Source: Gemmatimonadota bacterium
GTDB taxonomy: Bacteria; Gemmatimonadota; Gemmatimonadetes; Gemmatimonadales; GWC2-71-9
Assembly: GCA_003221005.1 (NCBI GenBank)
Contig: QHTZ01000109.1
Location: 1-32,393 of the forward strand
Direction: 5' to 3'
DNA: 32,393 bases
Shown: positions 15,449-19,542 of the stretch, piece after piece
How positions within the stretch are numbered: position 1 is the first letter of the stretch
Layout: the number at the start of each line of letters is the position of its first letter
Position numbers and translations under genes: made by a program
Notes under the pieces: model-generated
What the model was told of the DNA's origin: nothing
The model's database searches: none
The model's input: only the letters and a program-made list of their open reading frames with translations

Positions 15449-16708
15449 ATGTCGATCTCGAGAAGAGTGTTCGTGAAATCAGGCGGCCTGGCGCTGTTCA
15501 GCTTGGGCATGGATCCACTGTTTCTCGCCCGGGCCGCGTTCGCCTCCTACCGCCCCCTACCGCCCCTTACCGCCTCCGACCGTCCGACGCTCGTCTGTCT
15601 GTTCCAGCGTGGCGCCGTGGACGGGCTCAACATGATCGTCCCTCACGGCGACCCCTTGTACTACCGCGAGCGCCCGCGCATCGCCGTGCCGCAGACGGAC
15701 GTCGTGGACCTGGACGGCTACTTTGGCCTGCATCCGCGCCTCGCTGCGCTCGAGCCCTTGTGGGACAACAAGAGCCTCGCTGCGATCCACGCCGTTGGGT
15801 CCCCGGATTCAACCCGCAGTCATTTCGACGCGCAGGACTATATGGAGTCGGGCACACCGGGCGTGAAGGCAACATCCGACGGCTGGCTGAACCGCTACTG
15901 CGAACACGATCGGGAACATCAGCAGACGCCGTTCCGAGCCGTGGCCTTCAGCGCGCGGCTGCCGCGCATCCTCGCGGGCTCGGCGCCGAGTCTGGCGATC
16001 GACGACCTGCAGGCGTTCGGGCTGCGCGCGCCCGGCGCGGCGCGCGACCGCCTCACCCGTGCCTTCGAGGAGCTGTACGCGGGCGCCGCGACCGGGCTGG
16101 TCTCCACCTCGTCGCAGGAAGCGTTTGCAGCGGTCCAGCAGCTGAAGCAGGCGAATCCAGCGCAGTACCAGCCTGCGAACGGCGCCGCATACCCACGCGG
16201 GCGGTTCGGCCATGCGCTGCTGCAAATCGCTCAGCTCATCAAGGCCGACGTCGGCCTGCACGTCGCCTTCGCCGATGTCACCGGCTGGGACACGCACGTC
16301 AACCAGGGGGCGAGCGAAGGCCAGCTCGCGGCCCGGCTCGCCGAGTTCGGCGGGGCGCTCGCCGCATTCGCGCAGGACCTGGGCGAGCGCATGCGTGACG
16401 TCGTGGTGCTCACGATGTCCGAGTTCGGCCGCACCATCCAGGAGAACGGCAACAGCGGCACCGATCACGGTCACGCGACGGCGATGCTCGTGCTGGGCGG
16501 TCCGGTGAATGGAGGCAAGGTGCTGGGCCGGTGGCCGGGACTCGATCCTGCGCAACGCTTCGAAGGACGCGACGTCGCGGTGACGACCGACTTCCGCGAC
16601 CTGTTCGCGGAGGTTCTGGCGCGGCATTTGGGTGCCCCAGACCTGGCGGCGATTTTCCCCGGGTTCACGCCGGACCCGACGCGGTTCGTGGGAGCGATCA
16701 GGGCGTAG
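15449..16708 (+). CDS. DUF1501 domain-containing protein with Tat signal
   Basis: RBS GGAGGAG, ATG 15449, SRRVFVK twin-arginine motif, QRGAVDGLN, FGLHP, RSHFDAQ, GWDTHVNQ, SEFGRT..ENGNSGTDHG, DFRD. Confidence 0.92.
   Translation: MSISRRVFVKSGGLALFSLGMDPLFLARAAFASYRPLPPLTASDRPTLVCLFQRGAVDGLNMIVPHGDPLYYRERPRIAVPQTDVVDLDGYFGLHPRLAALEPLWDNKSLAAIHAVGSPDSTRSHFDAQDYMESGTPGVKATSDGWLNRYCEHDREHQQTPFRAVAFSARLPRILAGSAPSLAIDDLQAFGLRAPGAARDRLTRAFEELYAGAATGLVSTSSQEAFAAVQQLKQANPAQYQPANGAAYPRGRFGHALLQIAQLIKADVGLHVAFADVTGWDTHVNQGASEGQLAARLAEFGGALAAFAQDLGERMRDVVVLTMSEFGRTIQENGNSGTDHGHATAMLVLGGPVNGGKVLGRWPGLDPAQRFEGRDVAVTTDFRDLFAEVLARHLGAPDLAAIFPGFTPDPTRFVGAIRA
15541..15588 (+). repeat. Tandem 10-bp (T)ACCGCC repeats inside the DUF1501 CDS, complementary to 15394-15430
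   Basis: cgcctcctac cgccccctac cgccccttac cgcctccgac cgtccgac, encoding ASYRPLPPLTASDRP. Confidence 0.8.
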
Positions 16709-16836
16709 AACGGCGTCACCAAACGACGTCGAGAAGAGACGTCAAGAAGAGGCGTACCGCCTCAGCGATCGGGGGGCGGGTTCTGGTACAGTCTCGCAAT
16801 CATCATTTACGACAAGCGTCGCTCTGCTGTGCCGCG

Positions 16837-17130
16837 CTAGACCTCGAGGATCAGCTTGCGGTAGTAGGCCAGCGCGCCGCCGCCATACACGCCGATGCCG
16901 AGCAGCAACAGGCCCAGCGCCGGGTGGAGGGTGAGCTGCCACAACCCGAAACCGGCGTAGCCAGCGCTCAAGGCGAACCCCAGCGCCACCACCTCCCGGC
17001 GACCCATGTAGATCCCGAACACATACCCCCAGCTGACCGCGGTGACGCTCAAGAACGCCACCGCGTGCAAGTACTTCGTGGGATCGATGAGGTTGAGCCC
17101 GCCGGCGAAGAGGCAGAACAGGCCGATCAC
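16837..17130 (-). CDS. Small hypothetical membrane protein (about 4 TM); start uncertain
   Basis: Hydrophobic C-terminal part of the 16837..17385 ORF. GTG 17130 is the first standard start that does not overlap the divergent GNAT. Confidence 0.55.
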   Translation of the reverse strand: MIGLFCLFAGGLNLIDPTKYLHAVAFLSVTAVSWGYVFGIYMGRREVVALGFALSAGYAGFGLWQLTLHPALGLLLLGIGVYGGGALAYYRKLILEV

Positions 17131-17160: not shown

Positions 17161-17667
17161 ATGCAGGCCACGCGAACCTATCTCGAGCTCACCGACCCCA
17201 CGCAGTTCCGGCCGGCGTTCGGCGATTTCCCGGGTCTCGTTGTGACGCACGTGGAGCACCCCGCTCCGACGCTCTATCGCGACTGTTACCGCACCGTCGG
17301 CGAGGCGTATCATTGGCGCGACCGCTGGAACTGGAGCGACGTGGAGATCGCCGCGCATCTCTCCCGGCCCGAGATCACGCTGCACGTGGCGCAGCGGGGC
17401 GGGCGGCTAGCGGGATGGTATGAGCTGCGTCGGGTGCCCGACGACCGATCGGTCGAAATCGCCTACTTCGGCCTCGCGCCCGACGCGATCGGCCGCGGGC
17501 TCGGCAAACACCTCCTCTCCTGCGCCGTGCGCGACGCATGGGCGCTCGGCGCCGCGAGGGTGTGGCTGCACACTTCCACCCTCGACCACCCGCACGCGCT
17601 GCCGAACTACCAAAAGCGCGGGTTCGTAGCCTACAAGACCGAGGCGTACGAGGTGGCTCGACCGTAG
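17161..17667 (+). CDS. GNAT family N-acetyltransferase
   Basis: ATG 17161 (MQATRTYLEL). YRTVG..YHWRDR, EIAYFGL....GRGLGKHLL, RVWLHTSTLDHPHALPNYQKRGF. Confidence 0.9.
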   Translation: MQATRTYLELTDPTQFRPAFGDFPGLVVTHVEHPAPTLYRDCYRTVGEAYHWRDRWNWSDVEIAAHLSRPEITLHVAQRGGRLAGWYELRRVPDDRSVEIAYFGLAPDAIGRGLGKHLLSCAVRDAWALGAARVWLHTSTLDHPHALPNYQKRGFVAYKTEAYEVARP

Positions 17668-17689
17668 ACCGCCCCGAACCCACCCCGAT

Positions 17690-17793
17690 CCGTGCGCTGA
17701 AGCGCCGGCTCGGCCCAGGCGCGTCTTGAAAGACGCCCGCGCTCCCGTCCTTCAGGACGCGTCGTACGCCGAGCCGGCCCTTAAGGGCACGGA
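17690..17793 (+). repeat. Left copy of ~105-bp structured direct repeat (REPIN-like) flanking tnpA
   Basis: CCGTGCGCTGAAGCGCCGGCTCGGC...GCCGAGCCGGCCCTTAAGGGCACGGA. Near-identical to 18295-18399 and internally palindromic. Confidence 0.93.
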
Positions 17794-17888
17794 CACGTCG
17801 AGCGCCGCGCCTTTTCGATGTGGCCCGCGTTGGTCTGACACTGCGTCGGGACGGATGCTGGCGAGATTGAAACCCGAGGAGGCCGCCC

Positions 17889-18305
17889 GTGCCCGTTCGC
17901 ATCTACGCCCACCTTACGTGGACCACGTTTGCCCGCCTCCCTTTGATCGACGCCTCCATCGCGGCTTTCCTCGAGAAATTCCTTGGCGCCGAGTGCGAGC
18001 GTCAGGGAACCAGAATGCTGGCGGTCGAGATAGTCCGCGACCATGTGCATCTATTGATCGAGCTCCCCGCCGCCTACAACGTCCCCCGACTCGTGCAAGG
18101 TCTCAAAGGGGCGAGTGCACGAATCGCGAATCGTGACCACATCGCGCGGCACGAGTCACTCCGGTGGGCGCAAGGCTACGACCTGCGTTCGGTCGGGCAG
18201 CGACAACTTACCACGGTGGAAGCCTACGTCCGAAACCAACCGGCTCACCACAAGGGCCGAGGACGAGAAGGAAGAGAGTCCGCCCCCGCTGAACCCGTGC
18301 GCTGA
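17889..18305 (+). CDS. tnpA: IS200/IS605-family HUH (Y1) transposase TnpA, without TnpB
   Basis: RBS GAGGAGG. YAHLTWTT, HUH motif DHVHLL, LKGAS, W..GY...SV, catalytic Y in AYVRNQ..HH. 138 aa. Confidence 0.9.
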   Translation: MPVRIYAHLTWTTFARLPLIDASIAAFLEKFLGAECERQGTRMLAVEIVRDHVHLLIELPAAYNVPRLVQGLKGASARIANRDHIARHESLRWAQGYDLRSVGQRQLTTVEAYVRNQPAHHKGRGREGRESAPAEPVR

Positions 18306-18399
18306 AGCGCCGGCTCGGCCCCAGGCGCGTCTTGAAAGACGCCCCGGCCCCCGTCCTTCAGGACGCGTCGTACGCCGAGCCGGCCCTTTAGGGCACGGA
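18295..18399 (+). repeat. Right copy of ~105-bp structured direct repeat
   Basis: Differs from the left copy by one extra C, a few central-loop substitutions and TTAAG>TTTAG. Contains the tnpA TGA stop (18303-18305). Confidence 0.93.
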
Positions 18400-18452
18400 T
18401 TACGCTCGAGCCCGCCGCCCGCTGCGTGCGCTGAACACCCCGCCGACTAACC

Positions 18453-19151
18453 TCACCAGTGGACCTCCCGCCGGTCGCGGAACAGTCTGCCCGTCGGCCC
18501 GCCGTCGGGGAGCGTCGCCAGGAACACGGCGGTGTCGGCACCCCGGGACGCGGAGCGCGGCGCACCGGCGCCGCCCATGTCGGTTCGCACCCAGCCCGGA
18601 TCCACAGCGTTCACGAGCACACCTGAGTCCCGCAACTCGTCCGCTAGAATCCGCGTGATGCCGTTGAGGGCAAGCTTGGAGATCTTGTAGGCGAGCGTAC
18701 GGCTCGTCATTGAGTCCATCTGGCCGTAGCCGCTCGTGACGTTGACGATGCGACCGTAGTGGTGCGCGGTCATGAGCGGTACCAACGCCTGGCAGAGCTG
18801 CAACGGGCCGAGTGTGTTGGTCTCGAGCGTGGCCCGAACGGTGCCGGCATCCACCTCGAGTCCGGAGGCGCCCTCGTCGAGGTAGACTCCGGCGTTGTTG
18901 ACGAGCACGTCGACGCGGCCGAGCTCACGCTCGAGCCACTCCTTGACCGCAGCGATGCTGTGCGCGTCTGTGACGTCGAGCGGTTGCGCGACGATCTGGC
19001 CGCCCTGCGCCTCCAGCGCTGCGACGGCCGCCCGCGCCTTGGCCTCGTCTCGCGCCGTGAGGACGACCTTCAGCCCCAGCCGGGCGAGCTGCCGGCATAC
19101 TTCGAGCCCGATGCCCCGGTTGGCGCCCGTGACCAGGGCGACACGCGGCAC
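18453..19151 (-). CDS. SDR family oxidoreductase (carbonyl reductase-like)
   Basis: VALVTGANRGIG, LVNNAG, catalytic YKISK, AVDPGWVRTDMGG. GTG 19151 with GGAG upstream. Confidence 0.92.
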   Translation of the reverse strand: MPRVALVTGANRGIGLEVCRQLARLGLKVVLTARDEAKARAAVAALEAQGGQIVAQPLDVTDAHSIAAVKEWLERELGRVDVLVNNAGVYLDEGASGLEVDAGTVRATLETNTLGPLQLCQALVPLMTAHHYGRIVNVTSGYGQMDSMTSRTLAYKISKLALNGITRILADELRDSGVLVNAVDPGWVRTDMGGAGAPRSASRGADTAVFLATLPDGGPTGRLFRDRREVHW

Positions 19152-19164
19152 TAGATTCTCCGGC

Positions 19165-19542
19165 GTGACATTCACGCTCTCCCGCACCCACAAACTCATC
19201 ATCGCTGCCGTGATCGCCGTCCCCGTGGCGCTGCTCGCCTTGTATACCTGGTTCGTCGTCTCCTGGACCTACTCGACCGGCGAGCGCGCGGGGTACGTGC
19301 AGAAGTTCTCGAAGAAAGGCTGGATCTGTAAGACCTGGGAAGGTGAGCTGGCCATGGTGGCCATCCCGGGCAGCATGCCCGAAAAATTCTACTTCACGGT
19401 CCGGAACGATTCCGTTGCCGGCCTCATCAACGGCTCACTCGGCAAGCGCGTCGCCCTGACCTACCGCCAGCACGTGGGTGTCCCCACCAGTTGCTTCGGC
19501 GACACCCAGTACTACGTGTCCAATGTGAAGACGCTCGAGTGA
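19165..19542 (+). CDS. Conserved hypothetical membrane-anchored protein
   Basis: N-terminal TM helix, then [27 protein letters not shown]...F.FTV...L.Y.QH.....FGDTQYYV, a motif set I recognise as a widespread uncharacterised family. TGATG overlap with acnA. Confidence 0.8.

Follow-up and report, generated by a model that had tools for sequence, protein, structure and literature searches.

Knowledge of the systems of repetitive extragenic palindromes (REPs), of the inverted REP doublets called REPINs and of REP-associated tyrosine transposases (RAYTs) comes almost wholly from Proteobacteria, in which the enzymes are of class 2 and the REPs are tagged with GTAG. Here, a locus of different make-up is described from a stretch of 32,393 nucleotides of a Gemmatimonadota bacterium (contig QHTZ01000109.1 of assembly GCA_003221005.1, hereafter the window), in which the gene for a Y1 HUH transposase, tnpA, stands between two near-identical repeats of four small hairpins each. 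This locus probably represents a REPtron-like system, i.e. a single-copy, chromosomally fixed transposase of the IS200/IS605 class with cognate flanking repeats, the same repeat family being dispersed through the genome as non-autonomous REPIN-like elements. From the letters of the window, the locus had been read as a domesticated system of the REPtron kind, in which an IS200-clade enzyme is joined by a nested double REPIN (the original prediction), and each of the checks proposed with it that was run supported this reading.

Ton-Hoang 2012 (PMC3333891) defines the REPtron and reports that the TnpA(REP) of Escherichia coli needs a GTAG foot and a mismatch in the stem. The E. coli REPtron and the present locus have in common a single Y1 HUH gene with inverted pairs of REPs of two sequence types on both sides, the dispersal of the same REPs between genes, a gene that appears to be inherited at one locus and not to transpose as a unit, and an imperfect REP stem (a bulged T here, a mismatch required for binding in E. 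coli). They differ in the enzyme, which belongs to class 1 here (Y-x3-Q, 138 aa, no C-terminal extension) and to class 2 in E. coli (Y-x3-NP, 165 aa), in the recognition box, which is a CTCGGC by the hairpin here instead of a GTAG foot, in the one or two extra conserved hairpins of the spacer, and in copy number (about 10 here, hundreds in E. coli). The RAYT-REPIN systems of Pseudomonas (Bertels 2017, PMC5581495) are similar in that inverted REP doublets are the replicating unit and flank a cognate single-copy transposase, in the genome-specific sequence of their REPINs and probably in vertical inheritance. In contrast to these, the present enzyme belongs to another branch of the family, the REPINs are very few and old, and a central hairpin is conserved.

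With the IS200/IS605 elements (IS608, ISDra2, Salmonella IS200) the locus shares the protein core, the catalytic motifs, the fold and the presence of hairpins on both sides of the gene. Insertion sequences of this kind (subclass 1.1) have several copies per genome at about 99% identity and are frequently carried on plasmids. Unlike them, the locus shows neither multiple near-identical copies nor tnpB nor plasmid copies, its ends are near-identical composites of 105 nt instead of short, distinct subterminal hairpins, and its clade is a separate sister group in a small tree. Quentin 2018 (PMC6006769) assigns true insertion sequences to subclass 1.1, enzymes with Y-x3-Q-x2-HH, low copy number and no REPs from Cyanobacteria and Bacteroidetes to subclass 1.2, and enzymes with Y-x4-Q and REPtron-like atypical hairpins, which are also dispersed, to class 3. 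The TnpA of the window resembles subclass 1.2 in its Y-x3-Q-x2-HH, its low copy number and the lack of IS-type ends; that subclass is reported without REPs and has a conserved C-terminal domain of about 30 aa that the window TnpA lacks. The FKEEYL-type tail of sequences from Persicobacter and Bernardetia is also absent from the window TnpA, and both sequences fall outside its clade in the tree. Class 3 is similar in joining an IS200-like Y motif to dispersed REPtron-like atypical hairpins and dissimilar in its Y-x4-Q, its core of 155 aa and its CnGA foot. Finally, Bertels 2017 (PMC5581495) describes an 'IS200 Group 3' as RAYT-like, without duplicates or plasmid copies and with abundant flanking 16-mers; it is likened to the present system by behaviour only (no duplicates, no plasmid copies, repeated flanking 16-mers), and its flanking 16-mers are more abundant (21 occurrences as compared to 6 here).

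Due to the 'IS200 Group 3' and class 3, the system is less undescribed than the original prediction had claimed. It combines the REPtron organisation with a class 1 enzyme, its own REP box and extra central hairpins. The word 'Gemmatimon' was absent from the text and two supplementary files of Quentin 2018 and from the main text of Bertels 2017; other supplementary sequence sets could include relatives. A literature search returned no paper linking a REP-associated tyrosine transposase to a Gemmatimonad, and REPIN combined with Gemmatimonadetes returned only unrelated work.

The source genome (G000) is a 2.79-Mb assembly of 94% completeness, in which the window lies on the contig here called C27. 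It was compared with 60 related genomes including six species-representative congeners (G001-G006), and a metagenome scan added 78 loci whose TnpA is 57-98% identical to that of the window. The assignment to Gemmatimonadales follows the source names of homologues of 62-68% identity. The window's own stretch was present in runs from 15 studies, and the clade is common in soil metagenomes. The repeat family was searched with an nhmmer profile and then with a covariance model.

The two repeats beside tnpA (Table 1) have the same orientation and are 95.2% identical over 105 columns (blastn against the whole assembly, E 8e-41). Each holds four perfect mini-hairpins, a to d, exactly as the original prediction had written them. 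The copies differ at five points: a C is inserted in the spacer of a and b, three substitutions lie in that of b and c, and the loop of d has an A/T exchange. As had been claimed of these differences, they spare the hairpin stems and all fall into spacers or a loop. The basic REP consists of a 7-bp stem that is directly followed by an invariant CTCGGC, the stem in G000 being CCG(t)GNNN-TGAA-NNNCCGG with a bulged T. A unit is built of two inverted REPs around one central hairpin in the dispersed copies (about 80 nt) or two central hairpins beside tnpA (about 105 nt). Both flanks of tnpA are complete units, not halves of one interrupted unit; the left one scores 72.6-73.9 bits with the covariance model. 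The stop codon of tnpA lies within the right repeat, as predicted, and its TGA (18303-18305) is the loop of hairpin a of that unit. In three soil runs from three studies, Logan contigs span the left flank, the left repeat, its specific centre, tnpA, the specific centre of the right repeat and the right flank with 0-5 differences per piece. Because independent contigs tile both copy-specific centres, the duplication of the flank is not an assembly artefact, an explanation that had been raised with the prediction.

Table 1. Features of the tnpA locus in the window (positions of the whole stretch)
Feature	Position	Strand	Description
Left four-hairpin REPIN-like unit	17690..17793	+	104 nt; REP a, central hairpins b and c, inverted REP d
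REP a, left unit	17690..17714	+	CCGtGCGC-TGAA-GCGCCGG (17690-17708), 7-bp stem with bulged T, then invariant CTCGGC (17709-17714)
Central hairpin b, left unit	17721..17736	+	GCGTCTTGAAAGACGC; homologue of the only central hairpin present in dispersed copies
Central hairpin c, left unit	17746..17759	+	CGTCCTTCAGGACG; extra hairpin, about 24 nt with spacer, missing from the dispersed 80-nt copies
REP d, left unit	17768..17792	-	CCGtGCCC-TTAA-GGGCCGG, then CTCGGC (minus-strand reading)
Shine-Dalgarno-like GAGGAGG	17877..17883	+	5 nt upstream of the GTG start; read from the sequence
tnpA	17889..18305	+	Y1 HUH transposase of 138 aa; PF01797 Y1_Tnp, 83 bits
Right four-hairpin REPIN-like unit	18295..18399	+	105 nt; orientation as left unit
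REP a, right unit	18295..18319		
Central hairpin b, right unit	18327..18342		
Central hairpin c, right unit	18352..18365		
REP d, right unit	18374..18398		
REP-start fragment CGTGCGCTGAA	18425..18435	+	11 nt, no completing stem; between right unit and SDR stop
SDR gene	18453..19202	-	Pfam adh_short; lineage-specific insertion, outside the conserved system

In the genome of G000, solo intergenic copies of the repeat outnumber the single tnpA, as expected for a REPtron. Seven dispersed full copies of about 80 nt were found (contigs C45, C28, C40, C102, C118, C80 and C75), plus one half copy (C125) and one divergent copy (C46), and every one of them is intergenic. They align with the flanking copies from end to end, except for the extra central hairpin of 23-24 nt. 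Among six of the dispersed copies identity amounts to 92% in stems and loops and 33% in spacers, so that they appear as old elements of intact structure and not as a recent burst. The site of the C75 copy is empty in 4/4 congeners having both flanks and that of the C45 copy in 1/1; since the comparable sites of congeners are empty, the dispersed REPINs are lineage-specific insertions. At the sites of C80 and C102, relatives have about 0.65-1 kb of extra DNA or just one conserved flank, and these sites gave no insertion information.

Several side observations concern these elements. Directly after the right end CACGG, three copies read ATAC, two read ACAC and one reads ATTAC (C118, C40, C75, C28, and left and right copies on C27); these letters may still belong to the element or may represent a motif for targeting or cleavage. 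The divergent copy (C46:23899-24017) has the same CTCGGC/GCCGAG frame, but its stems are CCATCC and CCACGC; it is similar to repeats that accompany a second paralogue of G033 (L044) and may be a relic of the population of another enzyme. The most frequent 16-mers of G000 stem from simple periodic repeats rich in C (of the types CCGCCCCCGCCCCC and CCCCGTCCCCCGTCC) and from an array of the heptamer AATGCGG, all of which are unrelated to the REPINs.

The REP stems change between genomes while the CTCGGC stays constant. The stem pairs are GCCC/GGGC, GCGT/ACGC and GCGC/GCGC in G000, CCCC and GGGC in G025, GCGCCC and CCGGGC in G003 and G001, and CGCGGC and CGCGAG in G006, G001, G009 and G033. Base pairs were counted in a model-fitted alignment of 40 rows, i.e. 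both strands of about 20 elements from five genomes; a MAFFT alignment of the elements of four genomes was not used for this purpose, as it had misaligned the 3' strands of the hairpins. In the model-fitted alignment, which is biased towards the structure of the model, 98.3% of 1021 cells pair, as compared to 79.2% in shuffles and 25-45% with the partners slid, and 23 of the 26 stem pairs show a compensatory change between genomes; the stem tables give the same pattern independently of the alignment. The original prediction had pointed out that a unit can alternatively fold into one long stem (a with d, b with c). This long hairpin is indeed the minimum-energy fold of either copy as a single strand (-72 and -77 kcal/mol), but the covariation favours the local hairpins: at loci that share the synteny of the window, c and d are altered on both of their own halves, with hairpin a unchanged, and hairpin c shows local covariation in related loci. 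Because c and d covary locally, selection is taken to act on the local hairpins and not on the long stem.

Gene and repeat are associated across the family. A homologue of tnpA is present in 18 of the 60 related genomes, and at 14 of the 29 homologue loci in these both flanks share direct repeats of 39-184 nt, which within the genus have the same multi-hairpin frame. On the 78 metagenome loci the covariance model yielded 460 matches, clustered beside tnpA. A simple REP detector (hairpin plus CTCGGC), applied to the loci with at least 300 nt on both sides of the gene (n=55), found REPs on both sides in 44, on one side in 11 and on neither side in 0. The REP density is 3.8-4.6/kb beside tnpA and 0.68/kb farther off. 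Moreover, 7 of the 8 genomes with at least 12 model matches have a Y1 gene, the exception being G020, an unpublished, 83% complete genome that is included in the 60-genome counts. Among the congeners, G001, G003 and G006 have both the homologue and REPIN arrays (those of G006 were seen in L030, not by the model), and G002, G004 and G005 have neither. Tandem or clustered paralogues interleaved with REPINs were observed at L082 (60-422 and 958-1266) and on contig C10 of G023, where three genes lie within 80 kb; these paralogues of the two lineages are 73% and 85% identical.

The distribution of the repeats also bears on the possibility that they are host elements, such as terminators, mRNA stabilisers or protein-binding sites, and that the transposase targets REP arrays or hitch-hikes in them without mobilising them. 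Some insertion sequences target REPs, and the strong conservation of stems and loops between randomised spacers would suit such a role. The seven related genomes with model matches and no Y1 gene are in line with it, as is a contig from a metatranscriptome library over the GNAT 3' end and the left repeat, which counts little as DNA may be present. This explanation is nevertheless regarded as decidedly improbable, since REP density in the 450 nt next to tnpA is 5-7 times that farther off, 0/55 loci are without REPs, and both flanks are complete units. In addition, the stem pairs are specific to the TnpA lineage, a pattern seen where enzyme and substrate co-evolve, and the repeats have no T-tract and no terminator site was found in them.

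The catalytic residues of TnpA are intact. The HUH motif is H52-V53-H54, the catalytic tyrosine is Y113 and Q117 is presumed to be the third metal ligand; H52, H54 and Y113 are invariant among 43 homologues, and Q117 is kept in at least 90%. The enzyme belongs to the IS200/IS605 class and is not a canonical RAYT, as had been predicted, and this placement is given by profile models, PDB sequences, fold and a small tree. It passes the NCBIfam IS200/IS605 equivalog model NF033573 (72.2 bits, cut-off 55), and its sequence matches in the PDB are the IS200-type entries 2EC2, 2FYX and 2F4F, IS608 and ISDra2 (E 2e-9 to 2e-7), with E. coli TnpA(REP) (4ER8) not among the matches at E<=1. The AlphaFold2 model (pLDDT 90) has its best fold matches in the TnpA of ISDra2 and IS608 (E about 1e-9), and 4ER8 is only the 30th match (10% identity). 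Beyond residue 122 the tail lacks conservation and is modelled with low confidence. The prediction had described an IS200-like tail, Y.xNQ..HH; Y-x3-Q is general, being carried by 117 of the 120 closest clusters, but the HH is no trait of the clade, as Y-x3-Q-x2-HH occurs in only 17 of the 120. In a tree of 45 rows, the TnpA sequences of Gemmatimonadales form one group (support 90/82) that is sister to IS references from Thermus, Deinococcus and Salmonella (96/97), and the E. coli RayT and two Bacteroidota sequences with the subclass 1.2 motif lie outside. Due to the small reference set and the very long branch of RayT, no more can be read from this tree than that the clade is a distinct one and belongs to class 1. 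No tnpB lies beside tnpA, whose neighbours are a GNAT acetyltransferase gene and a short-chain dehydrogenase/reductase (SDR) gene, and a search of the whole assembly (94% complete) gave no TnpB zinc-ribbon domain, which agrees with the prediction.

The synteny of the locus is fixed across a set of metagenome loci. In the six congeners, a gap of 25-45 nt that contains neither tnpA nor a repeat separates the GNAT stop codon from a conserved TAGATTC box, after which come a small membrane open reading frame (ORF) and the aconitase gene. As the gap between GNAT and TAGATTC is that short, the window from about 17680 to 19150 is extra DNA relative to the congeners. The order of GNAT, tnpA and small ORF-aconitase is kept in L068, L069, L079, L074, L075, L076 and L078 (TnpA 74-98%, aconitase 81-97% identical). 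In L074, L075, L076 and L078 repeat, tnpA and repeat stand at the exact site without the SDR gene (TnpA 74-82%, aconitase 81-87%, for the parts compared), and in the aconitase tree G000, L068, L074 and L075 form a clade with 98/98 support. In the sequences compared, the tnpA unit appears to have stayed at one site while it diverged about as much as its neighbours.

An ordinary autonomous insertion sequence of the IS200 family, with the whole repeat-tnpA-repeat segment mobile, with long multi-hairpin ends and with the 80-nt copies as deletion derivatives resembling miniature inverted-repeat transposable elements, would account for the NCBIfam assignment and the nearest structures and folds given above. 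It would also fit the site without tnpA in the six congeners, the homologues of 78% identity in another context (L070-L073) and the 2-3 paralogues or tandem copies in some genomes (G023, L082). We judge it unlikely all the same. G000 has two PF01797 genes, only one of which is of this clade, the other being 26% identical. No near-identical duplicate of tnpA was seen, the closest within-genome pair of paralogues being 84.6% identical, and multiple identical full copies, which had been raised as a sign against a domesticated system, were thus not found. The unit appears to have kept the same chromosomal site while TnpA diverged to 74-82% identity. No close plasmid copy was found, as none of the 629 plasmid matches exceeds 35% identity and all of them are genes of classical IS200/IS605 type. 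The dispersed copies, with their different REP stems and spacers of 33% identity, are not recent derivatives. Furthermore, the ends of IS200/IS605 elements are described as short and distinct on the left and right (Quentin 2018, PMC6006769), and those of the locus measure 104 and 105 nt and are 95% identical.

The same comparison of relatives bears on an excision of the unit through recombination of its two direct repeats, be it enzymatic or homologous, which would produce a circle with one repeat and tnpA and leave a solo repeat behind. The original prediction had offered this as its second reading, and for a Y1 enzyme acting at equivalent sites it is chemically plausible, the repeats being direct and 95% identical. 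It gained no support and is considered highly improbable: the six congener sites are truly empty and contain no repeat, no contig joins across tnpA in the three DNA runs (contigs drop rare variants, so that rare events are possible), and the retained copy-specific differences argue against frequent exchange.

Several observations weigh against a REPtron-like system. All six species-representative congeners are without tnpA at this site, the aconitase tree does not place L078, so that repeated site-specific insertion may have occurred, and the TnpA of L070-L073 (78% identical) stands in a different gene context, which means that the unit was relocated or transferred at least once. TnpA fails the NCBIfam model REP_Tyr_transpos NF047646 (31.2 bits, cut-off 80), and its motif is YVRNQ and not the canonical Y-x3-NP of RAYTs. 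The REPs have no GT[AG]G foot; the foot is CCGTG in G000 and variable between genomes, and the constant part is CTCGGC/GCCGAG. The REPIN population is small, with about 9 dispersed copies and a commonest flanking 16-mer that occurs 6 times, and classical REP systems comprise tens to hundreds of copies. Across the wider family the association of REPINs with the Y1 gene is only partial: of the 60 genomes, 8 have a model match and a Y1 gene, 7 have only the former, 17 only the latter and 28 have none of the two, as counted with a covariance model that detects only the CTCGGC type of REPIN, many Y1 genes having other repeats.

For the REPtron-like system, which is still preferred, a mechanism can be proposed by analogy with the TnpA of IS608 and ISDra2 and with E. 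coli TnpA(REP). On transiently single-stranded DNA, TnpA would bind the REP hairpin together with the adjacent conserved hexamer. Y113 would then cleave nearby, with H52, H54 and Q117 holding a metal ion, via a 5'-phosphotyrosine intermediate, and rejoining of the strands would move or maintain REPINs in trans while tnpA itself stays put. REP binding, the cleavage sites, the action in trans and a benefit to the host we only infer.

Transcription signals were searched for in the interval 17500-18600. A scan with Rfam gave nothing relevant, its two matches being at chance level (E 0.13 and 0.19), and a promoter scan of the interval found no sigma-70-like promoter. A terminator scan found no site in the repeats; the sole terminator-like site of the scan lies inside tnpA on the minus strand, is at chance level and was rejected. 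A soil metatranscriptome contig of 151 nt (17653-17803, depth 2) matches exactly across the GNAT stop codon and the whole left repeat, and no contig of this run (15% of sampled words present) covers tnpA. As DNA carry-over is possible in the library, this contig is weak and is not proof of transcription.

The SDR gene is carried by L068 and L079 as well (TnpA 85-97% identical), and L069 (TnpA 98%) is uninformative in this respect because its contig ends inside tnpA. Since the tnpA unit stands at the same site without SDR in L074, L075, L076 and L078, the SDR gene is a later insertion, and no orthologue of it was found in the six congeners at E<=1e-40. Its true start is probably a GTG near 19151, as the gene as annotated reaches with its 5' end into the TAGATTC box and into the first part of the divergent small ORF. 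The 11-nt REP-start fragment recurs where the prediction had placed it; the boundaries of the SDR insertion are not resolvable by eye, and no role is claimed for the fragment. On the other side of GNAT, the interval to the DUF1501 gene (window 16708-17050) measures about 350 nt in G000 and about 1-3 kb, including another SDR-like gene, in G003, G001 and G004 (compared in L062, L063 and L066). This difference between G000 and the congeners indicates that the neighbourhood of GNAT was rearranged more than once.

Two further observations concern other Y1 genes. At L079 (3344-3755), in the context of GNAT, tnpA and SDR, tnpA aligns as two overlapping pieces in different frames, which suggests a frameshifted, decaying copy. 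The second Y1 gene of G000 (C66:6398-6736; L022, about 1380-2110) has GC-rich hairpins of its own, CCCCGGGGCGWCGCCCCGGGG, at three loci that are all on C66, one hairpin copy lying in frame within the HemN-like radical SAM gene that comes next. Relatives of this second gene form a long-branch subclade in the TnpA tree.

A more far-reaching interpretation is put forward tentatively, as possible rather than probable. It sees here an IS200-class domestication that took place independently of the Y-x3-NP RAYTs and has long been retained in soil bacteria of the Gemmatimonadales, where it would maintain a small population of REPINs with three or four hairpins, the hairpins and the CTCGGC being kept by selection or by enzyme-mediated homogenisation and the spacers being randomised. 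If this were true, the system would offer a second model, one that is tractable and very compact (138 aa, 25-nt REP), for the transition from a transposase to a genome-resident, repeat-keeping enzyme. The genome organisation is the same as in the systems of Proteobacteria, but the enzyme belongs to the IS200/IS605 branch and the recognition box is another one. Should the enzyme act on these REPs, Y1 transposases would have been domesticated more than once, and the system would provide a minimal enzyme-substrate pair for studies of the recognition of single-strand hairpins. In that case, the contrast between conserved hairpins and randomised spacers would also bear on whether REPINs are selfish replicators or host-serving elements.

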